A stretch of DNA of 64,000 nucleotides, taken from assembly GCA_023667245.1 (NCBI GenBank), contig JAMPAL010000001.1:65317-129316 (forward strand), in the 5' to 3' direction. Source of the DNA: Anaeroplasma bactoclasticum (GTDB lineage: Bacteria > Bacillota_I > Bacilli_A > ML615J-28 > CAG-313). The notes beneath the pieces are model-generated. The model made no database searches, was not told the DNA's origin, and saw only the letters and a program-made list of their open reading frames with translations. The position numbers and the translations under genes were made by a program. The stretch's first letter is position 1, and each line of letters begins with the position of its first letter. This document shows positions 27,101 to 51,791 of this stretch, one piece after another.

Positions 27101-30100
27101 TAAATTCTTGTTTTACATCAATTGTCTTCACTTGTGAATCAGTTACAAATAGAGTATCGTTCCACTTATCATTGATTAATTTCAATCCATAGTTGATAGC
27201 ATTAAACAATAATTCGCTTTCATTTGCTTGTACAACATTTAAATCATACATATGCTCAACAATATCAGCAACCTTATTTAAGTCAACCATTTGAATATTC
27301 TTTGTTCTTAAGTATTCTATAGCACCAAATGTGATTGCTTCATCGAGAATATTCGCTAATGTGCCTAGATCTTCAATCAATGCTTCTTTAGAAACTTGAG
27401 CTAAATAATCAATAGAGAACGGAACTTGACCTGAACGATTAGCTAAATTAATCAAATATTTAAAGCCTTTTTCAATGATGTTACCTAGCAATTGTGATTC
27501 TTGTAAGGTTCTTAGTGCATCTGTAGCAATATAACCTACTTCATCAGTCAATACGGTTGGATAAGTATACCACTTATCTTTAAAGAAGTTTACTGCAGCA
27601 TACATCGTTTGAACATTTGCTGTTTCAAAGAAATCGTATCCTAATGCAAGGAGTTCTTTGATAACTTCTTTTTCACTTGCCCAGTTAATATTTCTAAAAT
27701 CAAAATCAGCTTTGCTTAGTTCAAATACTTGATCTTGTGCATAGAGCTCAATCAATTTATCATAAACTGCTTCTGCTAAACGACCATTTGCACATTGTAC
27801 TAAATTTAATTCATATAAATCATCAACAACTGAAAGAACTACAGATTCATTAGGTAAAGGCATTTCGCCTTTTTCTCTATCAAGATAGTAATCTACAATA
27901 GATAAATCTTCTACTAATTTGTGAGCAATTGTCACTAAACTATGGAAATCATCTACCAATTGTTCATTTGTAAGTTCATAGATATAATCCAATTGAATAC
28001 CTTTTTCACCAAGGAATTTTACACCATATTTGATACCTAGTGGAATAATTGCATCAATCACTTCTACATCTGCAATTTTATCAATGATATTCAATATACT
28101 TGTGGCATTGGCATCTGTTACATATGTGTCATATTCATGATTACCTTTAAGAATACCTTGAATAATTTCGATTGCGGCATTTACATCAGCAACTTGATTT
28201 TCTTTAAATAAAGCAACAATATCTGTAATGATATTCTTGTATACCGCTTTTTGTCCTTGCCAATCTACATTAGAGAAGTCTTCATTGATGGCACCAAGTT
28301 CAATCTTCAGTAATGATGCAATATAATTTACACCCCAAGATAATGTTGCTTCTTCATGACCACGGAATAACTCCATATCATGTAATGCATCAATAATATT
28401 GCAAAGGGCATCACTCAATTGATCATTGATAGCGATATTGCCTTCTTTGGTCAAGAATGTTTGTGCATCCACAGAAACAAGTTGATCTAATACATATACC
28501 AAGCAACGTAAATCATGTGCAAGCGTTTGTCCACTTGCATTGGTTACATCTAGTTCTTCTACAATGCTCTTGAAATCTTCTGGAATGATATTTTTAGCTT
28601 CTACATAAGTATCATAAATAGTAGGAAGTAAAACTTCAATTAATTTAGAACCACTTACATTTGTGTCCTCATAAGTACCAAATAATACTTTTACACCATT
28701 GACTAAAGCTTGTGCATTTTCATTTTCTGCCCAGAAATTTAAATCAAGAATCAATTGATTTTGCTCATTAAATAGGGTGAATGATTCATCTTGTAATACA
28801 TTACTAATTTCATCAATGAAAGATAATAGAATATCTTTTTCACCTGTATAATCTAACTCAATTAATTGGTTGTATACATCTCCATCTTTTTCAATGTCTA
28901 AAAGACCAGAAACTTTTAACAATACACGAATGATTCTACCTTCAAAACCTTGGATGATTTTAGAATCAAAGATACCCGAAACAATGGTCTTCATTGCATC
29001 TACTTGTTCTAATGCAAGAGCATGTAATCCATCATCTTTGATGTCCAATACATTTAAATCAACAGCGGCTTTTACAACATCAACCAATTTGATCACTTCA
29101 TTGACCAATTCTTCCGAAGAAATATGATCTAAAATATCTTTAATCAAAGCGCTATCATCTATTGTTTCTAATTTTTCAATTTGTGGTACCAAATATTTAT
29201 CTAAAACATTTGGTAATACAGTTAATACCAATTGAGATTCAACAATGTTTTCAAGTGCTTCTACTACATAATCTAAGAATGTATCATTTTCTAACAATTG
29301 TTCTATATTCTCAGTCAAACTAGAAAGATTATAAATATCAAATCCTTCTACATCAATCAATTTTGCATACGTATCAATCAAACTTAAAATAACAATAGTT
29401 TCATTGTTCCAATCTACATTTTGGAAAGCATCTTCTTCTAAAACTTCAATCCAACCAAATTGTCTCATAGAAGCAAGAACAAGCTTATTCTTTAATTGAT
29501 TGTCACCAAGAATATGTAATCCTAATGCTTTTTCTACAATCAATTTTAAATTAGCAATAGCTTGATCACTTGTAAGATCTAAGTTTTGATATACAAAAGG
29601 ATTTAAATTGTCTAATACTTTGATTTCATTGGCAGCCTTAGCAATATCCAAAATATCTTTTAAATCTTCTTTCCATTCTTCACTTGACATACCATTTACA
29701 TCTACAATGTCACCAAACTCATTTGCTTTTTGATCAATAAATTCATCTAAGAACTTTTGCATTGTAGGTGTACCTGCAAGTTTATACAATTGCAAATCAA
29801 CCAATTGACTAGCGAATGTATTCGCAGATTCAAATTTATCTGTATTTTCTAAAATATCTTGAACAATATCTACCCAATTTTTAGTTTGGAATTCTTCAAC
29901 AGATTCAAAACCAAAAGTAAGGAATGTTTCATATAGACTCACTAATTGGCCTAATTCTTTATCCCATACTACTTGACTGAAATCGACATTGTCTAAAGCA
30001 TGTTTAGTCATATCTTGAACTTTTTCTATCGAAACTCCAACCGTTACAGCAATATTGATAATTTCATTCATCCTTTGAGATGAAAATAATTTGTTGACCA

Positions 30101-32501: not shown

Positions 32502-32534
32502 TTTCACCTCTTTTTTTCATGACTTTACTCATTT

Positions 32535-40326: not shown

Positions 40327-42045
40327 CTAAAAAACTGCATAAGCAAGCGCTAATAAATCGCCCTCTTCACTTATTCTATCTGAAAAAATAGTTACTCGTA
40401 TAACATATGTAGTGGTTTCTTCCACAAGATATGAAAATAATTCCACATTAGAGTCTGAGCATTGTGAAGAAAGAATAATCTGACCATCAGGTAAAAATAA
40501 CCTTAAATCATAATCCCCCGTAACTGTTTCATTCTTTTTTCCTGTTGCTTTGGCCAACCAAGCAAGTGATGCTCGAAGTGTTTGGCCCTTTTCTAAATCA
40601 ATACGATGTTCTACTACAGTTACATCATTACTATTTACTGGATTTACAGTACAACATGCCATATAAGCATTATACACATTATCAAGTGCATTCCCCAAAT
40701 GCAATTTACCTGCTCCATAACTTGGTGCCAAAGGCTTAAATGTTTCTGGAACGCCATAATCCCCCAATTGTTGAGCGTTCGCACATAATATAGCAGTTAC
40801 TAGTTGAGGGTAACATTTCAAATACGGGCGTTTTTCCATTAGAAGAGCAATAGAACCACTCGTAATAGCGCAGGAAAAACTTGTACCTTCATAGTTTTTG
40901 TTGAAACCATCCACATAAACCGTTGTTCCTCTTGCTAGTAGTGTAGGCTTTTCTGGTGCCCCACTCTTGTATTGATAATTGGAAAAATAAGCATAGTCAG
41001 TACTTTCTTCATTATGAGCTCCAACACTAATTACATTGTATCCTAAAGCAAGTGTACTGATGTTGCCTCCTTCATTTCCCACCGCCGCAACAATGGTAAC
41101 TCGATAAGTATATACAATATAATCCATGTATGCTGATAGTGCACCATAATATCCATCAGGTTCTGAATCTGCACAAGATAAATTAATGATATCTGCACCT
41201 TTACTTAGTAACCAGTCTATTTCATTACTAGGACTACCATATAAATGTGAAGTTAAAATGGTAGCATTTGGCGCCATCCCTCCATGGCCAGCTATAATAG
41301 CCGCCACTACGGTTGTGTGTTCACTAATGGAATTGGCATGCAAAAATTGTTTGTGTGTAACCACATTTGTTCCTACTAAAGAAGCATGATCTTTATCCGC
41401 AATACCCACTTCTAATACCCCCACTTTTATACCATCGCCAGTCAATTCTCTGCTTTCAAATAATTCCCCTGCTCCCATACTATAAAAAGCATTGCATACT
41501 TTTTCTTCTAGGTTGACTTCATTGGTGTGTCTTACATATGCTGTTTTGACAAAGGCTGTGTTAGACAATTTAGATAGTAATTTTTGTTTGCATTGTTCAA
41601 ATGCTTCTACTTCAAATATATATTCAATATAAGGCATATAATGAGATATATATTTATCCACATATCCTTCAATTTCTAACAGTCCATCTAAAACCTTATT
41701 TTCTTCTAAGTGGTATTGTCTTATAGCTTCTCTTGCATATCCACGAATCTCATTGACCTCTCTATTCGTCATATCTTCTGTGACTTCAATTGGATTGATG
41801 GATGATTCAATATTTTGCAATACGTTTTTGTTATGTTGGTCGTAATCTAACTCGATTTCTAAAATGATGACATCATCTGTAGATCCTTCTTCTGTAGTAT
41901 TATCACTGTTTAAACTTTCTAATGTTTTTGCTTCGTACCTTAGGTTATCTAGAAAAATCACCTTTTGATCATCTATACCATAAGTAATTAAAAAAGATCC
42001 AAAAATAATGACAATAGCTACCCCCATTAATGCTATTTTTTTCAT
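40327..42045 (-). CDS. Membrane-anchored/secreted S8 (subtilisin-like) serine peptidase; Glu sits at the canonical catalytic Asp position
   Basis: 572 aa with N-terminal TM/signal KKIALMGVAIVIIFGSFLITYG. Subtilase blocks: GDGIKVGVLEVGIADKDH (Asp block, but with E212 where subtilisin has D32), SEHTTVVAAIIAG (His), VAAVGNEGGN (oxyanion Asn), GTSFSCAITSGSIALL (Ser). Confidence 0.8.
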   Translation of the reverse strand: MKKIALMGVAIVIIFGSFLITYGIDDQKVIFLDNLRYEAKTLESLNSDNTTEEGSTDDVIILEIELDYDQHNKNVLQNIESSINPIEVTEDMTNREVNEIRGYAREAIRQYHLEENKVLDGLLEIEGYVDKYISHYMPYIEYIFEVEAFEQCKQKLLSKLSNTAFVKTAYVRHTNEVNLEEKVCNAFYSMGAGELFESRELTGDGIKVGVLEVGIADKDHASLVGTNVVTHKQFLHANSISEHTTVVAAIIAGHGGMAPNATILTSHLYGSPSNEIDWLLSKGADIINLSCADSEPDGYYGALSAYMDYIVYTYRVTIVAAVGNEGGNISTLALGYNVISVGAHNEESTDYAYFSNYQYKSGAPEKPTLLARGTTVYVDGFNKNYEGTSFSCAITSGSIALLMEKRPYLKCYPQLVTAILCANAQQLGDYGVPETFKPLAPSYGAGKLHLGNALDNVYNAYMACCTVNPVNSNDVTVVEHRIDLEKGQTLRASLAWLAKATGKKNETVTGDYDLRLFLPDGQIILSSQCSDSNVELFSYLVEETTTYVIRVTIFSDRISEEGDLLALAYAVF

Positions 42046-42187
42046 TTTATTGCTACTTTTCCTCCCTTATTATTACCCTTGTGTTTGATATTTTTGCAAA
42101 CACCATCTATATATACGACAAACTAGTCAAAATCGCCCCAAATTCTTTACAATTTGTCAAACTTTTTTTCATATTTTCAAATTTCAA

Positions 42188-42213
42188 CAAAAAAAGGGAT
42201 AAAATTATCCCTT
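42188..42213 (-). terminator. Terminator between the sigma/anti-sigma pair and the S8 protease gene
   Basis: Stem aagggata (42194-42201) / tatccctt (42206-42213) with a 4-nt loop. On the minus strand it is followed by a long T-run. It directly abuts the stop at 42214. Confidence 0.6.
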
Positions 42214-42813
42214 TTAATTCGCTATAGTATATTCTTTTGATATACCATTTGTACTAATAATAAAGTGAAGTGCTTTTCCTTCTTCTATAGATAACTTCGT
42301 CAAGTAACCACAAGATGTCTCATTGATATGGATGAATTGAGAATCTATTGAAATAGTAATAGGCTTATTCCTTTCTTGCTTGAAATGAACAACATAAAAA
42401 TAATCTGAAATTTGCTTTTTCATATCAACACCTTTATATATATACATTGATGCATTATCATTGATACGTATGCTACATTGATAATCCTTACTCACATATT
42501 GATTGATAGACAGCATATAATCATGATATTCACTTTTTAATATTTCTGTTCCCAACTTTTCCTTACTCGTATTGTCCCATCCCCAATGTATACATGCCAA
42601 ACCAATTACCCCAAATAAAAGAACAATAGACATAAGTGCTGATAATTTAAAAGACAATTTATAATGTTTCAATGCCTTGTTATTTTTCTCGAATTGATCT
42701 TCTATATTTACTTTGAAATATTCTGTTTTTTCCATCACATCTGAGGCCCTTAACTTGGGTTGATATGTTTTTTCAAAGTCTTCCTTTAACATTGTTTTAA
42801 TTCTTTTTTTCAT
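42214..42813 (-). CDS. Single-pass membrane protein, candidate anti-sigma factor
   Basis: 199 aa. It overlaps the ECF sigma gene by 4 nt. It has a ~55-aa cytoplasmic N-terminus, one TM helix (LSALMSIVLLFGVIGLACIHWGW) and an extracytoplasmic C-terminal domain. The call rests on context and topology only. Confidence 0.45.
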   Translation of the reverse strand: MKKRIKTMLKEDFEKTYQPKLRASDVMEKTEYFKVNIEDQFEKNNKALKHYKLSFKLSALMSIVLLFGVIGLACIHWGWDNTSKEKLGTEILKSEYHDYMLSINQYVSKDYQCSIRINDNASMYIYKGVDMKKQISDYFYVVHFKQERNKPITISIDSQFIHINETSCGYLTKLSIEEGKALHFIISTNGISKEYTIAN

Positions 42814-43340
42814 TTTTCTGTTCCCCCCTTAATGAATTTCTTTACTTTTCCATGAGAATTATAGTAAATGTGCTTTACTTTACTCATTGTCATATGGCTT
42901 TCTTCTGCAATATCTGAAAATTTCATTCTTAATCCATCTTTCATATATAAAATACGATATGCTTCTTCCCCAATATACCGTTCTACCTCTGATAACATTA
43001 TGAGATTATCTTGATTGCTCATGCAATGTGCGCTTTCTACATGTTGATTATTTATAGATAGGACATTACGTCTTGATTCTTTTACCTTCACTATGTCTTT
43101 TAAATGGTTATTAGCAATGGTAAACATCCAAGTTTCAAAACTTGCCTTTTTTTCATCATATGTATGAATATGATCTAGTATTTTAATAAATATTTCTTGC
43201 ACAGCGTCTTCTGCATCTTCTACGTTGTGTGTATATTTTAAAGAATAGTAGAATAATATTTTGTTATACTTTTCAAATAATTGTTCGAAAGCAGCTTCAT
43301 CTTTTTCAATGATTCCTTTTATAATTTTTTTATTCATCAT
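42810..43340 (-). CDS. ECF-type RNA polymerase sigma-70 family factor
   Basis: 176 aa. Region 2: EDAEDAVQEIFIKILDHIHTYDEKKASFETWMFTIANNHLKD. Region 4 HTH: MKFSDIAEESHMTMSKVKHIYYNSHGKVKKF. Confidence 0.85.
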   Translation of the reverse strand: MMNKKIIKGIIEKDEAAFEQLFEKYNKILFYYSLKYTHNVEDAEDAVQEIFIKILDHIHTYDEKKASFETWMFTIANNHLKDIVKVKESRRNVLSINNQHVESAHCMSNQDNLIMLSEVERYIGEEAYRILYMKDGLRMKFSDIAEESHMTMSKVKHIYYNSHGKVKKFIKGGTEK

Positions 43341-43437: not shown

Positions 43438-43467
43438 AAAAAACATGCCCGGAACTGACCAGGCATC
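43438..43467 (-). terminator. Putative terminator after tRNA-Gly
   Basis: On the minus strand: gatgcctgg-tcagtt-ccgggcatg (stem with one mismatch), followed by tttttt (complement of 43438-43443). Confidence 0.55.
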
Positions 43468-43477
43468 ATATCTCTTT

Positions 43478-43552
43478 TGGAGCAGGTAACCGGAATCGAA
43501 CCGGCATCTTCGCCATGGCAAGGCGGTATAATAGCCGTTATACTATACCTGC
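43478..43552 (-). tRNA. tRNA-Gly (anticodon GCC), CCA encoded
   Basis: Reverse complement: GCAGGTATAGTATAACGGCTATTATACCGCCTTGCCATGGCGAAGATGCCGGTTCGATTCCGGTTACCTGCTCCA. It has a 7-bp acceptor stem, a T-arm GCCGG/TTCGATT/CCGGT, an anticodon loop CTTGCCA, discriminator U and a 3' CCA. Confidence 0.9.
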
Positions 43553-43609: not shown

Positions 43610-44359
43610 TTATTCTTCGTCTGATTCAACTGGGTCTAAACCAACAACATTGTGATATACATCTTGCACATCGTCATCTTCTTCAAGCAAATCAAGAAGA
43701 CGTTGCAATTGTTCTTTTTCTTTATCTGTTGCAAGTTCTACTGGATTGAGTGGAAGCCAAGCGACAGTATCTTCTAAAAATTCTTTTCCTTCTGGAAGTA
43801 CTTCTCTTAAAGCCTCTCTAATTTTACCATATTCTGTACTAGGGGCAGTAATTGTTACGACGTCTTCGTCAGAAGAGATATCCTCTACATCACAATCTGC
43901 TAAAAGTAATGTTTCTAGAACTTCTTCTTCACCCATAAAGTCTAAAGAAAAAATGGCTGTATTTTTAAACATATGTGTTACACTACCACTTCCCGCAATC
44001 TTACCGCCACAACGTTGCAATGCAACTTTTACTGCTGTTTGAGTCCGATTATGGTTATCTGTTAAACATTCAATGACAAACATTGAATTTCCAGGTCCAA
44101 AGCCTTCTAATGTCATTGGATCATAAGACTCTTGATTGGCACCTTTGGCCTTATCAATTGCTCTTTTGATAACATCCGCAGTCACTTGTTCTCTTTTTGC
44201 TTTTTCGATTTCCTTCTTTAAGTTTTGGTTTAAGTCTGGATCAGGCACACCGGACTTCGCAGCCATATATATGATGCGGCTCCATTTGTTATTTAATTTT
44301 GATTTTGCTGCGGCAGTTTTAGCCATTGATGCAGCACGAACTTCATGTGCTCTACCCAT
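43610..44359 (-). CDS. yebC: YebC/PmpR-family DNA-binding transcriptional regulator
   Basis: 249 aa. MGRAHEVRAASMAKTAAAKSKLNNKWSRIIYMAAKSG.PDP..N..L...IEKAK and the following blocks are the highly conserved YebC/YeeN pattern. Confidence 0.9.
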   Translation of the reverse strand: MGRAHEVRAASMAKTAAAKSKLNNKWSRIIYMAAKSGVPDPDLNQNLKKEIEKAKREQVTADVIKRAIDKAKGANQESYDPMTLEGFGPGNSMFVIECLTDNHNRTQTAVKVALQRCGGKIAGSGSVTHMFKNTAIFSLDFMGEEEVLETLLLADCDVEDISSDEDVVTITAPSTEYGKIREALREVLPEGKEFLEDTVAWLPLNPVELATDKEKEQLQRLLDLLEEDDDVQDVYHNVVGLDPVESDEE

Positions 44360-44390: not shown

Positions 44391-44399
44391 ATTATACCA
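44391..44399 (-). promoter_or_regulatory. Extended -10 element (TGgTATAAT) upstream of yebC
   Basis: The minus strand reads TGGTATAAT (complement of 44391-44399), about 30 nt upstream of the AAAGGAG RBS and ATG of yebC. The -35 is weak (TTTCAA). Confidence 0.4.
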
Positions 44400-44470
44400 C
44401 TATTGGTAAAAATTTGAAAGTAATTTGAAAATTTTTATATACTTTATTATCCCCTAGATTCATCAACTTC

Positions 44471-45652
44471 TTATTGAAAGGTGATAACAAGTCCATTATT
44501 TTCAATATAAGTTTCAATGGTTTTGATGCGTGATCTATTTTCTTCTGATACTTCAGTTAATTTTAAAATATTGTGTTTAGAACAGCGCACCTCAATATTT
44601 TTTCGGTTCAAACGATAATCTACAATGGCACGGAGTCCTTTATAAAGCCCTTTATACATTGCAGTTAGTAAATCTTGTGGTGTATTGGCATAAGATCCAC
44701 CACTATTGCTATAATCACTATTCTCAATACTATATTTCCATGCAAAAGTATCACTATCCTTAATTGCTATAGGCTGAATGGATAAAACTACTGTTGCATT
44801 TGTTCCCATAGAAAGATCCATTTTGGTATCTACTAACTTAGACAAAACGCGTTTTAATTTGCGATATTCACCAATCGACATATCATTAATATGTTCAACT
44901 AAATTGTTATTCGGATTCGCCACATCTAACACCATATAATTTTTCTTTACTTGATTATCGGGATTCACACCTAGTTTTTGATAAATATCCTTTGATACTT
45001 CTATTTTTTTTCCTTTCATCAATTCGTCTAAAGCCTTGATAAAAGCATGGAGATAGTCCTCATATCGATTGTCTTTAAAATACGTATTGAGTGCATAATA
45101 TAAAATAATTTCTATAATATATCCTGAGATATGAATATTTTGTTCTTCTTTATAATACTGAATAATTTTTACTGCATTTCTAAAATAAGTATAATCTCGG
45201 TTGGCTAGTTCAGTAAACTGAATTTGTAGTTCATCTATAGCAGCAAGATATGCTTCCTGAGTATAACGGATGAGAAGATGAATTACGTAATTTCGCCATC
45301 TGATGGTTATACTATTTCTAGAAATATTTCTCGTGATATCGCTTAATTTTTGCACTTCTTTTGCATAAATAAAAGCATTGACGATTTCATTACATATAGC
45401 CTCATTTTCTAACACAAAGGCAGTTTCACCTGTTGGTTCTACAATCACCATGATGTCTAGTTCTTCAGCATCATTTAGTAAAGTACCTTTGGCCCAAGAT
45501 CCAGCTTTTTGAATTGCCTGAATATGGGTATGTGGCGTCACATTTTTCTCAATGATGTTACTGATTTGCAATAATTTTTCATTGAGGGCATCTCTTTCAT
45601 CAGATAAAATTTCTACATCTGTAACTAATCTTCTAAATTCTTTTTCGGTCAT
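44471..45652 (-). CDS. OAS/cGAS-DncV-like (CD-NTase-fold) nucleotidyltransferase with a ~110-aa C-terminal extension
   Basis: 393 aa. Pol-beta NTase motif: AGSWAKGTLLNDAEELDIMVIV (GS-x11-ExD). OAS/CD-NTase-type helical lobe motifs: AVKIIQYYKEEQNIHISGYIIEIILYYAL (cf. lKxWr...lkSyhLElL) and YMVLDVANPNNNLVEHI (cf. iLDPAnPtnNv). Its ATGA start overlaps the stop of the upstream PHP gene. Confidence 0.6.
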   Translation of the reverse strand: MTEKEFRRLVTDVEILSDERDALNEKLLQISNIIEKNVTPHTHIQAIQKAGSWAKGTLLNDAEELDIMVIVEPTGETAFVLENEAICNEIVNAFIYAKEVQKLSDITRNISRNSITIRWRNYVIHLLIRYTQEAYLAAIDELQIQFTELANRDYTYFRNAVKIIQYYKEEQNIHISGYIIEIILYYALNTYFKDNRYEDYLHAFIKALDELMKGKKIEVSKDIYQKLGVNPDNQVKKNYMVLDVANPNNNLVEHINDMSIGEYRKLKRVLSKLVDTKMDLSMGTNATVVLSIQPIAIKDSDTFAWKYSIENSDYSNSGGSYANTPQDLLTAMYKGLYKGLRAIVDYRLNRKNIEVRCSKHNILKLTEVSEENRSRIKTIETYIENNGLVITFQ

Positions 45653-46461
45653 ACATCCTCCTGATTGATGGGATATTGGTATTCTTTGCGTTGTATATAA
45701 TACACTAGATAATCAAAACCACAAGATTGTATCATGCGCATATAATGTTGGAAAGAAGACTCATATCGCTCTACACTATGTGCATCACTCGATAAGGTTA
45801 AACGTTTCCCTCCTACTTGTTGATATAATTGCAATAAGTAGCGTGTGTGTTGATCATCATGAATGGCCTCTTGTACCTTTGTGTTGATTTCCAATGCTTT
45901 GTTATGCGTAATGAGGTTTCGATAAACCTGTTTGATTTGTTCTTCGTATGTGGATATTTTGATTGTTGAATCCATTAAATAGGCTGTTCTAAAAGCATAA
46001 TCAATATGGGATAACACATTGTAGTTGGTAAAAGAACCTGTTGCTTCTATCATTTCATCAAAATAGGCTGTTAATAATTGATGTATACCATATTGTTTGA
46101 AATACTTGGGCCAATAAAAGTCCGCATAATCATTCTCATGTATACTCAAATTCACTACATCATAAGATTCACTATTGATTTGCGTATGGATTTGATCTAA
46201 ATAGCTTTTTCGATACCCAACCTCAATTCCAAGTAAAAAGGAAATTTGGGGATACTTTAATCGCAATTGTTGATGTTCTTGCTTTAAACGAGCATAATCC
46301 ACTGTCCAGTCCACTTGTCCTTCAACCATATCTAAATCAAAGTGTTCAGTCGTTACAAAATAAGAACACCCCAATTGAATGGCTTTTTGAACATAGGCTT
46401 CTAACTTTTCAGTCGAATCCATAGAATACATTGAATGTACGTGTTGGTCATGTAATTTCAT
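45649..46461 (-). CDS. PHP-domain phosphoesterase, HisJ/HisK histidinol-phosphatase family
   Basis: 270 aa. MKLHDQHVHSMYSMDS (HxH), FVTTEHFD, SIHEND, LSHIDY and LSSDAHS form the typical PHP metal-ligand series. No other his genes are in the window, so a role in histidine synthesis is not established. Confidence 0.8.
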   Translation of the reverse strand: MKLHDQHVHSMYSMDSTEKLEAYVQKAIQLGCSYFVTTEHFDLDMVEGQVDWTVDYARLKQEHQQLRLKYPQISFLLGIEVGYRKSYLDQIHTQINSESYDVVNLSIHENDYADFYWPKYFKQYGIHQLLTAYFDEMIEATGSFTNYNVLSHIDYAFRTAYLMDSTIKISTYEEQIKQVYRNLITHNKALEINTKVQEAIHDDQHTRYLLQLYQQVGGKRLTLSSDAHSVERYESSFQHYMRMIQSCGFDYLVYYIQRKEYQYPINQEDV

Positions 46462-46483
46462 ATATATCGCCTCGAATCAGTTC

Positions 46484-46492
46484 ATTATACCA
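46484..46492 (-). promoter_or_regulatory. Extended -10 element (TGgTATAAT) upstream of the PHP-NTase operon
   Basis: The minus strand reads TGGTATAAT (complement of 46484-46492), 22 nt upstream of the ATG 46461, with a GAGG RBS in between. No good -35 lies at 17 nt (a TTGACT sits 22 nt away). Confidence 0.4.
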
Positions 46493-46609
46493 TATTTTGT
46501 AAAAAAAGTAAAGTCAAACTGCGTATCTAGTGATATATCGTCTTATTGATTTTTTTAATCTCTATTTATTTTGACTATAATAGCCACTTTCAATCTGAGT
46601 TATCCCCTT

Positions 46610-47056
46610 CTACTTGATACACTCTTCTAAGATAAATCCTTTTACTTTATGAATGATTACACCATAATCATCTATGACTTCCATAATTTTATCTTTCAGT
46701 CCTGTGGCTAGTTCTTTATTTTCTTCTAAAAATTTAAGTGCACTAATCAATCCCATATTTGTTGATTTGATGGCATTAATACAAATTGTAAATGCATCAT
46801 GGAACACCTTCATCTTTTCTTTATAAACTCCCATAATACCTGCTGCGGTGAGGCTACTTGTAGGCTCTTCATTAAATTCTTGAATTAATGAACGAATGCC
46901 TTCTTCATGTTTTTTAAACATTTCCATAATTTCAACAATCAAGCGACTGAGTTTTTCTTCTTTTAATCTTTGTGCCTCATCATAATAAATACGATAAATA
47001 CTATTTCCCATATGTACATAAGATAAAAATTTATTTAATTCATTTGTTTTTTCCAT
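46610..47056 (-). CDS. Four-helix-bundle protein, DUF2383/PA2169-like (tentative)
   Basis: Start refined to ATG 47056 (AGGAGGA RBS 7 nt upstream). The protein is helical, and LNKFLSYVHMGNSIYRIYYDEAQ...EEPTSSLTAAGIMGVYKEKMKVF resembles the DUF2383 pattern (from memory). Confidence 0.4.
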   Translation of the reverse strand: MEKTNELNKFLSYVHMGNSIYRIYYDEAQRLKEEKLSRLIVEIMEMFKKHEEGIRSLIQEFNEEPTSSLTAAGIMGVYKEKMKVFHDAFTICINAIKSTNMGLISALKFLEENKELATGLKDKIMEVIDDYGVIIHKVKGFILEECIK

Positions 47057-47170
47057 AAAACAATCCTCCTTTTTTATAGTATTTACCATAAATGGGAAAA
47101 GTATAATTTTATTTTTTGCTTATAATATAGGAAATAATCAATTAAATTAAAATTGATTTTTTCATAATAA

Positions 47171-47203: not shown

Positions 47204-48544
47204 TTATTTATATTTGAGTATTTGACGATTATTTTTAAGTATCGTAGCTACATCATGATAGGAAATTTGGCGTATATCTTTATTCTGTTGAATAGACAAT
47301 GCACCAAGCACACCAGCTGCCTCACCCAGTGCCATACAAACAGGACTTACCCGAAGAGATGCTGCTGCTTCATGAGTCGCACCAATCATTCTTCCTGTTA
47401 CAATTAAATTATTCAATCCTTTTGGTAATAGACATCGTAAAGGAATCTCAAAAGCCAAATGATTGATTGTTGTATCATCATCTACTTCTAATGCATCTCC
47501 TACTGGAGAATGAATATCCATAGGAAACGCGCTTACACATATGGCATCATTAAATTGACGATGTTCTAATACATCTTCTTTGGTCATCATATAATCACAT
47601 ATCATATGTCTAGTTTCTCTGACACCAATTTGATAAGGAGTTTGAACAATGTAACTATGCTCAAAGCCGGGAATATAGTGTTTTAAAAATTGAAAAGTTT
47701 CTTCTATTTGTTTTCTTCCTTCTATTTCCGCCTTTGTTAATGCTTGCGCGTCCAAAGCGGAATGCTTCAATACTCTAGTCATATTGATTGTAACTTCATT
47801 GGTACGCACATTTTCAAAAAGTAAGACCCGATCACGCTGAATAGAGAAATCATGATTCTCTTTCGCCTGCTTTACTTCTTTGAAAAATCCACTAATACCT
47901 ATGTATTGAAAATCATATTTGTCATTCAAAACAAAATTGTCAGGATGCTCTTGCATTGCTTTTCTGAGTTGATTCAAATCTACATTCCCAACCACAAAAG
48001 GCATCGTCATTGGTTGACACAATTGATCCGTATCACGTCCAATATGATACTTTGCTCCTGCACTTGTTGCAAGATCACCATCACCTGTTGCATCAATAAA
48101 TACCTTGGCATATTGGTTTGAAACACCGCTTTTATTCGCAATTGTTACAGCTTGAATTGTTCCATCTTCTACTACAGTATGAATTATCTTTGTATGTAAT
48201 AGTAAATCAATATTCTGCTCAACAATCATATCAAAATAAAGTTTTTTCAATGCTTCCGTATCAATCGGTGTTACTGTACTACAAAATCCGAGGGGATCTT
48301 CAATATGGCCTAATGTACCCTTCGTTTGCTTCAATCGTTCAATGATTTCAGAAGCAATTCCACCTATAATAGGTTTACCTTGATTGTGATAAGTCATCAG
48401 TGGTCCAACTAAACTTAGTGTATTGGTTCCACCAAGTATTGCTGTATCTTCGATAAGCAACACTTTGGCCCCACTTCGTTTCGCGGCAATAGCTGCACAT
48501 ATGCCAGCAGGTCCAGCTCCACCTACTATTACATCATAAATCAT
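47204..48544 (-). CDS. FAD-dependent oxidoreductase (FAD_oxidored / PF12831-like)
   Basis: Start refined to ATG 48544 (GGAGG 9 nt upstream). The dinucleotide-binding motif is MIYDVIVGGAGPAGICAAIAAKRSGAKVLLIE..ILGGT. The C-terminal GRMIGATHEAAASLRV...GEAAG is typical of this family, which I recall is common in glycan-utilisation loci. Confidence 0.8.
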   Translation of the reverse strand: MIYDVIVGGAGPAGICAAIAAKRSGAKVLLIEDTAILGGTNTLSLVGPLMTYHNQGKPIIGGIASEIIERLKQTKGTLGHIEDPLGFCSTVTPIDTEALKKLYFDMIVEQNIDLLLHTKIIHTVVEDGTIQAVTIANKSGVSNQYAKVFIDATGDGDLATSAGAKYHIGRDTDQLCQPMTMPFVVGNVDLNQLRKAMQEHPDNFVLNDKYDFQYIGISGFFKEVKQAKENHDFSIQRDRVLLFENVRTNEVTINMTRVLKHSALDAQALTKAEIEGRKQIEETFQFLKHYIPGFEHSYIVQTPYQIGVRETRHMICDYMMTKEDVLEHRQFNDAICVSAFPMDIHSPVGDALEVDDDTTINHLAFEIPLRCLLPKGLNNLIVTGRMIGATHEAAASLRVSPVCMALGEAAGVLGALSIQQNKDIRQISYHDVATILKNNRQILKYK

Positions 48545-50003
48545 TTGACTCTTCCTCCACCTTGATTTCAATCTCAAACATTCTACCCCAAGGCAAAGTC
48601 ATTTGATAAGGTGTATGGTCAATCCAATCATCATATTGATGTATCCATTTGGCTACTTCTGCTAATGCCAAATCAACATCGGATTCTAAATTGTAAATAG
48701 AACAACCTTTTTGGATTAATGTTTCAGATGCCTTTCTTCTAGCTATATATTGATATATACAATCATCCATAATACGCTCTTTCAAAAAAGCCGTATTGGT
48801 TGTTGATTCTGGATGAACCAAATAAGCCATTGCGTTACAAAGCGCAGTACCTAGTGAATTAGATGAAGTATTCCAAGCGGAATATCCTAGTAATTTTCGA
48901 TATTCTACATCTTGAAGCAACTCTATACTACCTCCATTAGGAAAAAGTAAGTCTACCAATAAAACTGGTTTTTGTTGAATATAGTTATTGAGTTGTTGAA
49001 TATATTGAGAATATGCTTCATCTTTTCGAATAGGTACTTCAATGTATTCTTTTAATTCTAATGGATGATTTTCTTCTTCCGCAAAAATAGCCAGTATAAA
49101 CGATGCATCTTCTACTTGATCAACCAATTGAATACCTATTGTCTCTAACATTTTATATAAGTTTTCTGAAAAGGGTCGATCTTCAAATAAATGGCACTTC
49201 TCCAAAATAGCACTAGATGGCATATGCAAATAAGCCTTAGGTGTCATTTGATATTCTTCTTTGATGATTCTAGCTAACAATACAGCTGCACCTTCATCTG
49301 TTCCATTATAAAATTCTACCACATCAACCAATTGGTCCTTTTCCATTTGAGCTTGAATTTCTACTTGATCAATAGCTTGAATGCCATAAGGACTCGCATC
49401 TTCTTGTAATAATATCATTTTATCTATAATCTTATCTTTTGCTAATGATAAAAAGAATTTGTTTAAAATGAGTTTGGTCTTTCTTGCTTTTAAATAGGTA
49501 TTTAAAATATGCGGTGGAATACTTTCTTCTATCATCTTTAGTTTTGCAATATCCTCTGGTTTTTGAAAGAAATAACAAGCCCCTTTTAAACGAGCAAATT
49601 CATTCATCACATTATAATAACGATGACTTTCTTCATCAAATGCGGTAATGGCTGTACGCATAATAGTATCAAATACATATATTTTTAAATGAGTGTACTG
49701 TTGTTTGATTTGCCTAATTACATCCAATTGTGTCAACACTTTTTCTAAATCAATCTGAGCTTTACGAGCTTGAATAAGACCGCCAAAACATAAGCCATCT
49801 GTAGAAAGAATCAAATAATCCATTTGATGCACATTTTCTTCTAACCATGGAATCATATAATCGATGTTTGCCCCCTGATATAAATTACCACAGGCTTCTC
49901 TAGGATACATTAGCAATTGGAAATTTGCAATTTTAGCTAGACTTTCTATCCATATCGTATTACATGGTCTACTATCTAATGGGATTAATCCTACACGTAT
50001 CAT
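48534..50003 (-). CDS. DUF4127-like protein (function unknown)
   Basis: 489 aa with no signal peptide or TM. The N-terminal MIRVGLIPLDSRPCN resembles my recollection of DUF4127. Both ends overlap neighbouring genes (translational coupling). Confidence 0.45.
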   Translation of the reverse strand: MIRVGLIPLDSRPCNTIWIESLAKIANFQLLMYPREACGNLYQGANIDYMIPWLEENVHQMDYLILSTDGLCFGGLIQARKAQIDLEKVLTQLDVIRQIKQQYTHLKIYVFDTIMRTAITAFDEESHRYYNVMNEFARLKGACYFFQKPEDIAKLKMIEESIPPHILNTYLKARKTKLILNKFFLSLAKDKIIDKMILLQEDASPYGIQAIDQVEIQAQMEKDQLVDVVEFYNGTDEGAAVLLARIIKEEYQMTPKAYLHMPSSAILEKCHLFEDRPFSENLYKMLETIGIQLVDQVEDASFILAIFAEEENHPLELKEYIEVPIRKDEAYSQYIQQLNNYIQQKPVLLVDLLFPNGGSIELLQDVEYRKLLGYSAWNTSSNSLGTALCNAMAYLVHPESTTNTAFLKERIMDDCIYQYIARRKASETLIQKGCSIYNLESDVDLALAEVAKWIHQYDDWIDHTPYQMTLPWGRMFEIEIKVEEESNDL

Positions 50004-50701
50004 AAACGATCTATTGCTTCACGGAACGATTTCAAAGTTGAAAAAATAGAATCCTTTTCTTTGCCCATTGAAATAGCTCCAACCATTACAGCTTTTACAC
50101 CACATGCCGCAAGTGCCTTCACATCCTCTGGCAAAACAACATGTTGGGTCGGAATAATTGCTGGTATCTTGGAACGAGATGCTAAATACTTATATCGAAC
50201 TAAATCTCTTGCATTTAATCTTTCCCCGTATGTTTCTGGTAAACAGATTGAAAGTTCCAAAATATCGGCAAAATCGCCCTGACTTACTGCCTCAATTTCT
50301 TCTAAAGTATATGTGCTATTGACAGCAAAGAAATTGGTGATATCTTTTCTAGTAATTAAAGATGCAGGTGTATGATGACCATATAATGAAACAAAATCAA
50401 ATCCCATTTTCACCACTTCATCTAATTGTTTTTCTGCAACAAATGCATCTTCTCCAACCACAATACCTACTGGAACAGGAGAATCTTTGAGTATTTTTTC
50501 AAATACACTCTTATTGTCTTCTAATGAACCAAATGTGTTGTTACTTGCACGATGCCATACATTGATATGTACCTTAATCGCATCTGCTCCTGCTTCCCAT
50601 GCTGCTTTTGCAAAATCATAATTATTTGCAGGAATGCTCGCAATTAAACACATTTTGTTTTGATTTAATTTATCTAATAATCGATTCATTTTTCTTTTCA
50701 T
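50000..50701 (-). CDS. Putative (beta/alpha)8 TIM-barrel enzyme, NanE-like phosphate-binding type (tentative)
   Basis: 233 aa. It has an alternating beta/alpha pattern: AGADAIKVH, VPVGIVVG, GFDFVSLYGHH, IPAIIPTQ, GVKAVMVGAISMG. The start is uncertain (ATG at 50701, 50689 or 50653). Confidence 0.35.
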   Translation of the reverse strand: MKRKMNRLLDKLNQNKMCLIASIPANNYDFAKAAWEAGADAIKVHINVWHRASNNTFGSLEDNKSVFEKILKDSPVPVGIVVGEDAFVAEKQLDEVVKMGFDFVSLYGHHTPASLITRKDITNFFAVNSTYTLEEIEAVSQGDFADILELSICLPETYGERLNARDLVRYKYLASRSKIPAIIPTQHVVLPEDVKALAACGVKAVMVGAISMGKEKDSIFSTLKSFREAIDRL

Positions 50702-51791
50702 CTTCCTTCTTCATTATTTTCTTAAACTCTTTTTCTAAATGATTAGCCATTTTTTTAAATCCTAAATCATTGGGATGAATACTATCAACAGTATACTCAT
50801 GGTAATCATCTCCTAATAATTTCGAACCATTAATATAATAAATATGATGGTCCTTTTTGCTTAATCTTTGTACCAATTGTTGTTGAAATAATCGGATTTG
50901 CTCTCGTTTTTTGCCCAATGTATCCGGATTTAAATCATCAAATAAATATTTAATTCTAGAAATTACAACAATTGGTTTATCAGGATGATGCATTCTTATC
51001 ATTCGAATCATATTTTCTAAGGTTTCCTCTAGTCGCCCATTTGTCCCACCATTGGCTTCATAATCTAGCACAAACATAGATGCATTTTCAATAGAGGCCA
51101 TCATTTCTGCAACAACAGCCTCACCAAAAGCATTCCCAGAAAACCCAAAATTGATGATTTCTGCTTTCATTGCTCGAGATAAAAGATTTGTATAGCATAA
51201 GCCAGGACGGCTAGCACATCCACCTTGTGTAATAGATGTGCCGTAATACACAATCTTATAATGATTAGAAAAATTCTCAAGGGGCTTATGTATATAAGCA
51301 CCTTTATCAATAGCGATTTCTATATGTTCTACACCCCCATACAATGGGAAATGAATCACAACCAAACGCTCTTCTTGTTTTAAGTCTTTGAATAATGTAT
51401 ATTCATATTCTTGCATACCTACCGCAAATCGACTAGAATCATAAAACATTAATGAATCATAATCTTTCCCCACATAGCAATCAAATCCACCTTGCGCAAC
51501 AAATGTCATGCCAGAAATACCAGCCATATGATGTACTTTTGCATGAATTACTAAACAAGTAGAATTGGTGATAAAATGGAGTTGTCCACCCGCAGTATGT
51601 TTACTTAAAGCAACTACTTTGGGTGATACTTTACCAATTTCTTCCTCCCATTTTTTCGAAAGCCTTTGATACAAATGTTCTTCTTGTATCCAATTCAAAC
51701 CATAAAATTGCACATCATCTGTTAAGGGGTCTATCCATTTGGTTCCTGCTATTGGGGTCAATGGTATGTCAAAATTTTTGTCTAAATTCAT
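50670..51791 (-). CDS. SGNH/GDSL-family hydrolase (putative carbohydrate esterase) with an N-terminal beta-rich domain
   Basis: 373 aa. Block I VYYGTSITQGG (nucleophile Ser), block II FGFSGNA, block V DSIHPND (Asp-x-x-His). Confidence 0.7.
   Translation of the reverse strand: MNLDKNFDIPLTPIAGTKWIDPLTDDVQFYGLNWIQEEHLYQRLSKKWEEEIGKVSPKVVALSKHTAGGQLHFITNSTCLVIHAKVHHMAGISGMTFVAQGGFDCYVGKDYDSLMFYDSSRFAVGMQEYEYTLFKDLKQEERLVVIHFPLYGGVEHIEIAIDKGAYIHKPLENFSNHYKIVYYGTSITQGGCASRPGLCYTNLLSRAMKAEIINFGFSGNAFGEAVVAEMMASIENASMFVLDYEANGGTNGRLEETLENMIRMIRMHHPDKPIVVISRIKYLFDDLNPDTLGKKREQIRLFQQQLVQRLSKKDHHIYYINGSKLLGDDYHEYTVDSIHPNDLGFKKMANHLEKEFKKIMKKEDEKKNESIIR

Follow-up and report, generated by a model that had tools for sequence, protein, structure and literature searches.

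The CD-NTases of CBASS (SMODS PF18144; E. coli CdnC 6u7b, PaCdnD 6p8u, CdnB 7ljo and CdnE 6e0k) are the closest described bacterial relatives of the nucleotidyltransferase-like (NTase-like) protein considered here, with which they have in common the Pol-beta core and the helical lobe as well as the GS loop, the second Asp, the LE(L/I)L helix and the DPxNPxxN loop. We know of no CBASS layout in which a PHP metallophosphoesterase is encoded upstream of a CD-NTase. The same fold is found in the eukaryotic OAS-family pseudo-nucleotidyltransferases (OASL 4xq7; the DZF domains of NF45/NF90, 4at7), which are among the top structural matches to our protein. OASL, NF45/NF90 and MiD51 are catalytically degenerate nucleotidyltransferases which act by binding and not by synthesis. 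Unlike OASL and NF45/NF90, the protein studied here is bacterial, carries other accessory domains and does not belong to their family, the Pfam model DZF_N giving a weak match below its cut-off (E 2.7e-4, 21.4 bits; cut-off 27.1); the likeness is one of kind, namely a decayed active site, and not of descent from them.

A PHP phosphoesterase and a Pol-beta-type NTase module are also combined in bacterial PolX and in Pol III alpha/DnaE (PMC2665239, PMC5636811). There the domains are fused, the enzymes are active polymerases and the PHP domain serves as an exonuclease, whereas in the present case the two are encoded by separate genes, one for a HisJ-type PHP protein and the other for a degenerate NTase of the cyclase type.

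The gene pair and its junction

The window, i.e. the whole stretch of 64,000 nucleotides of Anaeroplasma bactoclasticum DNA that was analysed, contains the two genes on its minus strand together with the following features.

46484..46512 (-), promoter-like element (TTTACT, 17 nt, TG-n-TATAAT) upstream of the PHP gene, assigned by position only
45649..46461 (-), PHP gene, predicted HisJ-family PHP trinuclear-metal phosphoesterase of 270 aa (PF02811, TIGR01856, PDB 4gc3 match)
45649..45652 (-), ATGA stop/start overlap of 4 nt between the PHP and NTase-like genes, read from the sequence
44471-45652 (-), NTase-like open reading frame of 393 aa, confirmed
44828..45652 (-), NTase-like residues 1-275, Pol-beta NTase core and OAS1_C-like helical lobe with a degenerate catalytic site (AF2, Foldseek, hhalign, column statistics)
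44474..44797 (-), NTase-like residues 286-393, domain of RNase H-like fold without a conserved DEDD tetrad (domain model, Foldseek, column composition)
44391..44418 (-), promoter-like element (TTCAAA, 16 nt, TG-n-TATAAT) in the spacer between the NTase-like gene and yebC, by sequence match
43610..44359 (-), yebC, TACO1/YebC-family translation factor, downstream neighbour (Pfam PF01709 and PF20772)
43478..43552 (-), tRNA-Gly(GCC) with encoded CCA and its own promoter-like element, end of the conserved block
43445..43466 (-), intrinsic-terminator-like hairpin with T-run, closing the block

Both open reading frames of the preliminary description, 44471-45652(-) with 393 aa and 45649-46461(-) with 270 aa, are present, and the PHP stop codon overlaps the NTase-like start by 4 nt as it had stated (GAT GTA TGA / ATG ACC). 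The extended -10 element that it assigned to the pair was likewise recovered as TGGTATAAT at 46492-46484(-), preceded at a spacing of 17 nt by a TTTACT -35 box. The region is AT-rich (32.6% GC) and its promoter-like matches, 22 found against 23.1 expected from shuffles, are not enriched, so that the element of the PHP gene is assigned by position only. No terminator-like site was found between the NTase-like stop codon and yebC, and no riboswitch or leader in an Rfam scan.

The literal ATGA overlap (spacer of -4 nt) is confined to the source species and its nearest relative (loci L010 and L011). In 20 other loci the two genes are 8-13 nt apart and the PHP stop codon lies within the Shine-Dalgarno sequence of the NTase-like gene, which brings the tight junction to 22 of the 28 loci, including members with 26-36% identity; in one clade the spacer extends to 114-147 nt. 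The PHP and NTase-like genes are a genuine co-expressed pair, and the coupling proposed earlier is supported by the promoter layout and by the junction across loci.

The two proteins may instead be unrelated neighbours: the PHP protein would then be an ordinary small-molecule phosphatase with a histidinol-phosphate-like substrate, the NTase-like protein would act independently, and the shared promoter would come from compact genomes and inherited gene order. We regard this as rather unlikely, with weight that is far from negligible. The long spacer of the one clade speaks for it, as does the fact that many other genes of the window also overlap or abut; the junction with the stop codon inside the Shine-Dalgarno sequence, kept in 22/28 loci down to 26-36% NTase identity, speaks against it.

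The PHP phosphoesterase

The PHP protein is, by sequence, an intact HisJ-type trinuclear-metal phosphomonoesterase. It matches Pfam PF02811 (83 bits, E 3e-23), passes the HisJ family model TIGR01856 (102 bits, cut-off 90.2) and aligns end to end with the L. lactis histidinol-phosphate phosphatase of PDB 4gc3 (E 2.6e-26), so the HisJ-type assignment made at the outset is borne out. H7, H9, E39/H40, E80, H108, H152, D226 and H228 align with the ligands of 4gc3 and provide the full trinuclear-metal set. D17, Y117, Y157 and R160 also align, and E115 and R197 are replaced by D and K; the roles of substrate residues in this comparison are in part what we take them to be. An NCBI protein with 88% identity is named 'histidinol-phosphatase HisJ family protein'.

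Unlike genuine HisJ, however, the protein stays below all equivalog cut-offs (NF005996 33.3/133, PRK05588 133.6/321, PRK07329 180/303), its host is Mollicutes-like, and no his genes lie near any of its copies in the roughly 15 neighbourhoods that were read gene by gene, which argues against the reading as an ordinary phosphatase. To our knowledge, Mollicutes-type genomes generally lack histidine biosynthesis, and this also weighs against that reading. In its favour, PHP orthologues with 44-50% identity are found apart from the NTase-like gene, are interleaved with the linked ones in the tree and lie in four unrelated contexts. The orthologous family is a putative autonomous phosphatase that works alone in sister lineages.

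The pairing is loosened from both sides. The PHP gene occurs without the NTase-like gene in loci L034-L037, and the NTase-like gene without PHP in L030, L031/32, L067/68 and L070. Since each gene is thus found without the other in related lineages, an obligate partnership is weakened. As to the questions raised earlier about the partner, the pair is a core operon of the lineage and stands beside yebC in most core-clade loci, and PHP is not always present.

The NTase-like protein

The preliminary description assigned an OAS/CD-NTase-like fold to the 393-aa protein from three peptide motifs, which we located at residues 51-69, 163-189 and 241-255, and structure and profile comparison bear the assignment out. 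The AF2 model (pLDDT 89.4) matches CdnC by Foldseek at E 3.5e-11 with a target-normalised TM of 0.65, and further matches are OAS1, OASL, NF45/NF90, Cid1 and class-I CCA-adding enzymes. By hhalign the family is related to an intact CBASS-type cyclase-like outgroup with 99.5% probability (E 7e-23). AF2, Foldseek and hhalign agree on a cGAS/DncV-like Pol-beta NTase core followed by a helical C-lobe. A closer relative was not found in the Foldseek viral library, a PDB search with the single sequence gave no matches, and a PDB profile search gave marginal N-terminal matches only.

The protein stays below the cut-offs of all curated Pfam and NCBIfam models: SMODS scores 21.4 bits (cut-off 26.5), and CBASS_cyclase_a and CBASS_cyclase_b score 47.7 and 28.1 bits (cut-off 200 each). 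The best PADLOC cyclase model matches the window protein at E 3.3e-10, compared with 1e-18 to 1e-27 for the outgroup cyclases P0168-P0190, and the homologues P0117 and P0124 match no PADLOC cyclase model at all. Weak 'cyclase' matches that HMM-based defence finders return here should not be read as CBASS.

The catalytic site differs from that of CBASS enzymes. The outgroup cyclases P0168-P0190 keep the GS / E-x-D / D residues. The window protein keeps G51, S52, E64 and D66; its third carboxylate is replaced by H125, and the triphosphate Lys by Q165. Among 101 full-length homologues the third carboxylate is acidic in none, in both alignment registers: position 125 is N74/H11/K10/S4/Y1/G1, position 124 is hydrophobic, and across residues 112-130 no column exceeds an acidic share of 38%. 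All members of the core clade have Asn, His or Lys in place of the third carboxylate. The first carboxylate, at position 64, is acidic in 56% of these homologues. In more divergent members of the family GS and D66 are lost as well, and deep relatives without the whole catalytic site still keep the family's other conserved features. The GS ... [DE]x[DE] ... [DE] triad is not conserved in the family.

Outside the triad, 48 columns of alignment A1 are invariant, and at the N-terminus the protein level is conserved and synonymous sites vary; the family is, as these patterns indicate, under purifying selection. A kept fold, a decayed catalytic motif and purifying selection are together what is expected of a pseudoenzyme. 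Because the carboxylates are replaced or optional, and GS and D66 are gone in the deep branches, the NTase-like protein is probably a non-catalytic pseudoenzyme derived from a CD-NTase. Residual or non-canonical catalysis by the window protein could still be conceived, since it keeps GS, E64 and D66, and a metal might in principle be ligated by the Asn or His that stands in place of the third carboxylate.

Another difference from CBASS CD-NTases is an additional C-terminal domain. The last 108 residues (about 286-393; domain model with pLDDT 89.3 and pTM 0.82) form a beta-beta-beta-alpha-beta-alpha-beta arrangement, the best PDB matches of which are RNase H1 and the RNase H of reverse transcriptases. 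The likeness to type-1 RNase H is marginal by Foldseek (E 5.5e-4 to 7e-3, TM 0.5-0.63), and viral RNase H matches in the Foldseek viral library corroborate the fold. W305, G318, G319, K334, K338, E371, N372 and R375 are invariant in this domain. The DEDD tetrad of type-1 RNase H is not conserved: the composition is N21/D6/H4/S2 at the beta-1 position and N18/D15 at position 361, and where the tetrad would be expected the window protein carries S291, Q326 and N361. Catalytic RNase H activity was rejected on these grounds.

The family comprises 43 clusters at E<1e-30 among 1.84 billion representatives and is lineage-restricted, unnamed and specific to Anaeroplasma-like gut bacteria. For 110 homologue clusters no source gave a name beyond one 'hypothetical protein', and literature searches found no relevant paper on SMODS combined with a PHP domain and nothing relevant on inactive CD-NTases. 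With clusters unnamed, models below cut-off and no SMODS-PHP paper, the family and the pairing are undescribed, in agreement with the earlier remark that the module is uncharacterised.

The conserved block and the role of the pair

The pair belongs to a conserved block, (BipA)-PHP-NTase-like-YebC-tRNA-Gly, which is kept down to about 26-40% identity in Anaeroplasma-like, uncultured gut Bacilli/Mollicutes. Wherever the flank of a core-clade locus is long enough, both genes are present. The neighbouring yebC, noted earlier, was confirmed at 43610-44359(-) (PF01709 and PF20772), and it adjoins the pair in all such loci except L012/L042; tRNA-Gly follows yebC in 16 of 20 loci. The position of the NTase-like gene is fixed across 26-98% identity, the identities of the NTase-like, PHP and YebC proteins co-vary (r 0.98 and 0.86, with r = 0.98 for NTase against PHP), and a variable island begins only past tRNA-Gly. 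The block is, so far as gene order and divergence can tell, vertically inherited and housekeeping, and the patchy, island-borne distribution of defence genes is not seen. Synteny within a single lineage can be mere descent.

The preliminary description proposed a second-messenger or defence module. In its strongest form, the NTase would be a non-canonical, active synthase of a nucleotide or oligonucleotide signal which the PHP protein makes, trims or degrades. Fold and homology to CD-NTases and OAS, the GS, E64 and D66 of the window protein and the tight operon coupling agree with this, and the PHP family has cyclic-phosphate and nucleotide phosphoesterases among its members. However, the third carboxylate is absent in 101/101 homologues and the first is optional, so that two of three catalytic carboxylates are not conserved; deeper relatives have lost the entire site and kept other family features; scores lie far under the CBASS model cut-offs; and PHP is unlinked elsewhere. 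The gene belongs to the syntenic core and not to an island, and neither an effector nor a sensor gene accompanies it: the neighbours in core loci are PHP, YebC, BipA and tRNA-Gly, and no operon was seen with a Cap effector (phospholipase, nuclease, TM, TIR/SAVED) and optional Cap2/Cap3/HORMA/TRIP13. PADLOC, run on 10 neighbouring genes of the window, matched only a generic subtilase. We consider an active signal synthase very improbable. Because the catalytic residues are lost and the housekeeping block is conserved, the protein is probably a non-catalytic relative, and the pair probably does not serve signalling or defence in the manner of CBASS.

It had been said that a core operon of the lineage with an established metabolic role would speak against signalling; the core conservation is found, the established metabolic role is not. 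The fallback offered at the time, a housekeeping role next to yebC, fits the conserved core block more closely than the signalling reading does.

YebC acts in translation and binds the ribosome (PMC12234827, PMC11990639), and the flanking genes raise the alternative of a translation- or tRNA-linked factor: the NTase-like protein would bind structured RNA (rRNA or tRNA) like OAS, NF90 and class-I CCA enzymes and act with BipA, YebC and tRNA-Gly, and PHP would possibly process a phosphorylated RNA end. Throughout the family the pair is bordered by BipA, YebC and tRNA-Gly(GCC), YebC is still next door in loci that have lost PHP (L031, L032, L070), the intact-triad sister P0136 lies 20 nt upstream of the tRNA methyltransferase TrmO, and both the structural matches to class-I CCA-adding enzymes and RNA-binding DZF proteins and the RNase H-like C-terminal fold point the same way. 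Against this, proteins of the degenerate clade have neutral to acidic pI values (5.1-7.6), in contrast to typical RNA binders and to the basic intact-triad sister clade (pI 8.8-9.5), which leaves strong nucleic-acid binding by charge unsupported; yebC and the tRNA have promoter-like elements of their own; L030, L067 and L068 are without BipA, YebC and tRNA-Gly neighbours; and adjacency in a single lineage may reflect inherited order only. We judge such a factor improbable. Hardly more probable is a core housekeeping pseudoenzyme derived from a CBASS cyclase that serves as a nucleotide- or RNA-sensing subunit, with PHP as its partner, alongside the BipA/YebC/tRNA-Gly translation apparatus; if true, this domesticated sensing subunit would be a bacterial counterpart of OASL or NF90.

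The explanation that we favour overall, with moderate confidence, is a co-expressed pair in a housekeeping block, made up of a decayed CD-NTase pseudoenzyme and an intact PHP protein, and not CBASS-like. The family would have descended from CBASS-type CD-NTase cyclases, acquired the RNase H-like domain at the C-terminus and lost the two-metal catalytic machinery. Because the core clade keeps the GS-x-x-K-x-T loop, D66, the N125-type substitution, K165 and the D243...N250 loop, its protein may still bind a nucleotide-like ligand without polymerising it. Surfaces for partner binding would lie on the invariant N-terminal helix (MTEKEFRKLVTDLE), on the helical lobe and on the RNase H-like domain. 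As the PHP protein is tightly co-translated with it, the NTase-like protein may partner the phosphatase by binding or regulating it, a role for which we see the chances as about evenly balanced.

If the pseudoenzyme reading is right, an immune-type NTase fold has been repurposed in bacteria as a non-catalytic, vertically inherited protein, in parallel to animal OASL, NF45/NF90 and MiD51, and a previously unnamed protein family is defined; the significance is modest, the lineage being uncultured and the function inferred.

Two further candidates near these genes were set aside. Small open reading frames after the intact-triad sister genes, considered as TM effectors, are soluble or low-complexity, and a 159-aa DUF2383-like upstream gene, considered as part of the module, is conserved in close relatives only.

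Gene layout and synteny of the block

The preliminary description proposed a two-gene pair joined by an ATGA junction, and both open reading frames are confirmed on the minus strand (270 aa and 393 aa), the PHP stop codon overlapping the start of the nucleotidyltransferase (NTase)-like gene; the extended -10 ascribed to the pair and all three quoted peptide motifs of the 393-aa protein were also found. The features are the following:

46610-47089, minus strand: ferritin-like/DUF2383-like gene, 159 aa, sub-threshold Pfam matches
46492-46484, minus strand: TG-extended -10 (TGGTATAAT) with -35-like TTTACT, 22 nt upstream of the PHP start
45649-46461, minus strand: PHP gene, 270 aa
44471-45652, minus strand: NTase-like gene, 393 aa
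43610-44359, minus strand: yebC, downstream of the NTase-like gene after a 111-nt spacer
43478-43552, minus strand: tRNA-Gly(GCC), CCA encoded, 57 nt after yebC, closing the block with the terminator
43466-43445, minus strand: terminator, end of the block

Promoter-like matches numbered 22 against 23.1 expected from shuffles of this 32.6% GC DNA, that is, without enrichment. A separate extended -10 lies inside the NTase-yebC spacer, where no terminator was found, and the tRNA gene has a promoter-like element of its own (TTGCAT/TGcTATAAT). The 159-aa gene, flanked by the PHP promoter and, on its upstream side, by a terminator (47202-47175), occurs there only in close relatives (L010-L013, L019).

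The NTase-like family is a small one: among 1.84 billion representatives searched it comprised 43 clusters at E<1e-30, rising to 67 at E<1e-10. Its members occur only in 'Bacilli/Mollicutes' MAGs of uncultured gut bacteria or anaerobes, and a PHP 88% identical to that of the window is labelled Anaeroplasma bactoclasticum at NCBI. One locus with PHP, NTase-like and YebC proteins 98-99% identical to the window (L010, JAMPDF010000003.1) carries the record title 'MAG: Prevotella sp.'. This label probably reflects a mistake in binning or naming, since every other relative is an Anaeroplasma or Bacilli MAG and GC is 32.6% in the window.

The order PHP, NTase-like gene, YebC is kept in every core-clade locus with enough flank, with L012 and L042 the only exceptions for YebC; in most loci BipA is found upstream, either immediately adjacent or 2-3 kb away, and yebC is followed by tRNA-Gly(GCC) in 16 of 20. 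Identity to the window co-varies between NTase and PHP (r = 0.98) and between NTase and YebC (r = 0.86). Beyond tRNA-Gly the gene content is highly variable (KilA-N, RelB/Fic, methyltransferases, DpnII, DUF3800), a pattern that points to a tRNA-linked integration hotspot; the pair is located on the conserved side. The association with PHP and yebC noted in the preliminary description holds for the core clade, but not for two loci of a more distant, higher-GC lineage (L067 and L068), in which no PHP, YebC or BipA occurs within 5 kb and an SNase-like gene immediately precedes the NTase-like gene. Because an SNase gene lies upstream in the core loci too, an old backbone with insertions is suggested. 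In L067 (4950-7384) and L068 (3974-6408) a conserved 396-aa gene of unknown family begins 3 nt after the NTase-like gene, followed by a membrane protein fused to Maf and then TrkA.

Fold and catalytic site of the NTase-like protein

Sequence models matched the 393-aa protein below their cut-offs (Pfam SMODS 21.4 bits against 26.5, DZF_N 21.4 against 27.1, NCBIfam CBASS_cyclase_a 47.7 against 200), the best PADLOC cyclase model reached E 3.3e-10, and a PDB sequence search gave no match. A confident AF2 model built from 33 homologues (pLDDT 89.4) was placed by Foldseek in the OAS / CD-NTase / Cid1 / class-I CCA superfamily, with CdnC (6u7b, E 3.5e-11), OASL, OAS1, the NF90/NF45 DZF, Cid1, CdnB and CdnE as top matches, among them both active synthases and known pseudoenzymes. 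Profile-profile comparison of the family with its nearest outgroup, proteins of about 276-396 aa whose matches to PADLOC cyclase models have E-values of 1e-18 to 1e-27, gave 99.5% probability (E 7e-23, residues 9-261). The OAS/CD-NTase-like fold claimed earlier agrees with both results, and because of them a cyclase-type NTase fold and descent are supported for the modelled protein.

Residues ~286-393, modelled alone (pLDDT 89.3, pTM 0.82), adopt a predicted beta-beta-beta-alpha-beta-alpha-beta topology, whose best PDB matches are type-1 and RT RNase H, at marginal values (E 5.5e-4 to 7e-3, TM 0.5-0.63); a viral structure library searched with the full-length model independently matched RNase H domains of phages and retroviruses. 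The domain lacks a conserved DEDD tetrad (the window protein has S291, Q326 and N361 at the expected positions), and its invariant residues are W305, G318, G319, K334, K338, E371, N372 and R375. Neither the family nor its architecture of a degenerate cyclase fold with an RNase H-like domain is named in Pfam, NCBIfam or PADLOC; across 110 homologue clusters the only name from any source was one 'hypothetical protein', and two NTase clusters examined member by member carried none.

Catalytic columns across 101 full-length homologues of 39-94% identity
G51, GS loop: G in 100
S52, GS loop: S77 / A24
K55, GS-x-x-K: K85 / R15
E64, first carboxylate: acidic 56%; else S, N, T, K, I, L
D66, second carboxylate: D in 100
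I124, third carboxylate, hhalign register: hydrophobic
H125, third carboxylate, MAFFT register: N74 / H11 / K10 / S4 / Y1 / G1
Q165, triphosphate Lys: K91 / Q5 / R5

The outgroup cyclases retain GS, E-x-D and, in the adjacent strand, the third Asp (FDVL / VDII). Across residues 112-130 of the 101 homologues no column exceeded 38% acidic, and divergent members (26-34% identity) have lost GS and D66 too (e.g. "SLSLKWG...ELSFTL" in L032, "NFSIGI" in L030), while retaining the hallmark N-terminus MTEK[DE]FRK[LI][VI]xDxE, whose conservation is at the protein level, since synonymous sites vary freely. The alignment of family members has 48 invariant columns. Two-metal catalysis in Pol-beta-fold NTases requires all three carboxylates, and the pattern is therefore probably that of a pseudoenzyme under purifying selection. 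In the core clade, nucleotide binding may be retained (Asn predominating at the third position, the GS-K-T loop, D66 and the D243...N250 loop).

The second-messenger or defence module proposed earlier is not supported by these results: the catalytic site is decayed, the pair belongs to a vertically inherited conserved block, and PADLOC on ten window neighbours matched no defence model beyond a generic subtilase. The pair is not a CBASS-like module, and an active non-canonical synthase whose signal is processed by PHP is improbable. We lean towards a housekeeping operon of an active HisJ-type phosphatase and a protein descended from CD-NTases, probably non-catalytic, that carries an RNase H-like domain and may bind a partner, a nucleotide-like ligand or both. 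Such a vertically inherited pseudo-CD-NTase in bacteria would be mildly surprising, and the family is a useful caution for defence-system annotation; the host is uncultured and the significance modest.

The PHP partner and its junction

The HisJ-type partner claimed earlier is borne out, as PHP passed PF02811 and the HisJ family-level model, and no equivalog model. It aligns over its full length with L. lactis histidinol-phosphate phosphatase 4gc3 (E 2.6e-26), conserving all metal ligands as well as D17, Y117, Y157 and R160, with E115 replaced by D and R197 by K. Because of this alignment and its metal ligands, PHP is predicted to be an intact phosphomonoesterase-type enzyme. Orthologues without the NTase-like gene (44-50% identity) are found after VanZ, PPIase or RecR, or alone, and are intermixed with the linked copies in an NJ tree, so PHP is autonomous. 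In the neighbourhoods inspected, none of the copies had his genes nearby.

That the two genes are unrelated neighbours is possible but not likely. The junction is tight in 22 of 28 loci. For the window's species and the relative nearest to it the spacing is -4 nt, and elsewhere it is 8-13 nt with the stop codon within TAGGAGG or TAAGGAGG (including members at 26-36% identity); one clade has 114-147 nt. Since the junction is so often tight, co-expression is judged real and long-standing, and a physical or regulatory partnership is plausible.

Divergent members and other genes of the window

Five peripheral members of 418-435 aa (P0127, P0135, P0136, P0141, P0144) have the full architecture with a complete triad, and this sister clade would show the ancestral state. 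Three of its genes are located as follows:

L038, 5322-6578: intact-triad sister gene
L039, 600-1886: intact-triad sister gene
L040, 5953-7260: intact-triad sister gene

Their contexts vary, the neighbours being TrmO and asparagine synthase, a downstream 89-aa ORF, or small ORFs plus a resolvase, with no PHP, YebC or evident effector nearby, and one copy lies 20 nt upstream of TrmO. The downstream small ORFs were considered as membrane proteins and rejected as such. The sister-clade proteins may be active enzymes. A translation- or tRNA-linked RNA-binding role for the NTase-like protein draws on the BipA, YebC, tRNA-Gly and TrmO neighbourhoods, but is unlikely given its acidic pI and the independent promoters; the degenerate clade is neutral to acidic (pI 5.1-7.6), against a basic 8.8-9.5 in the sister clade, as in most outgroup cyclases. 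Short forms of ~280 aa (P0124-P0126, P0137, P0139; L031-L033, L069, L070) have neither the RNase H-like domain nor most of the active-site residues, but retain MTEKDFRKL at the N-terminus and still lie upstream of yebC.

Elsewhere in the window, a 4800-aa ORF (18105-32507, minus strand) encodes a very large protein of unassigned type with an N-terminal transmembrane segment, without Pfam match at E<=1e-5 or internal repeats by self-BLAST. On the variable side past the tRNA, 40327-43340 (minus strand) holds a cluster encoding an ECF-like factor (sigma-70 region-2), a protein of 199 aa that overlaps it and has no Pfam match, and an S8 subtilase of 572 aa, the source of the generic PADLOC 'subtilase' match. 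Upstream, the overlapping genes at 47204-51791 (minus strand) encode an FAD-dependent oxidoreductase (PF12831), DUF4127, a 233-aa protein without Pfam match and a GxDLY/SGNH esterase, and look like a carbohydrate or cell-envelope-related operon.
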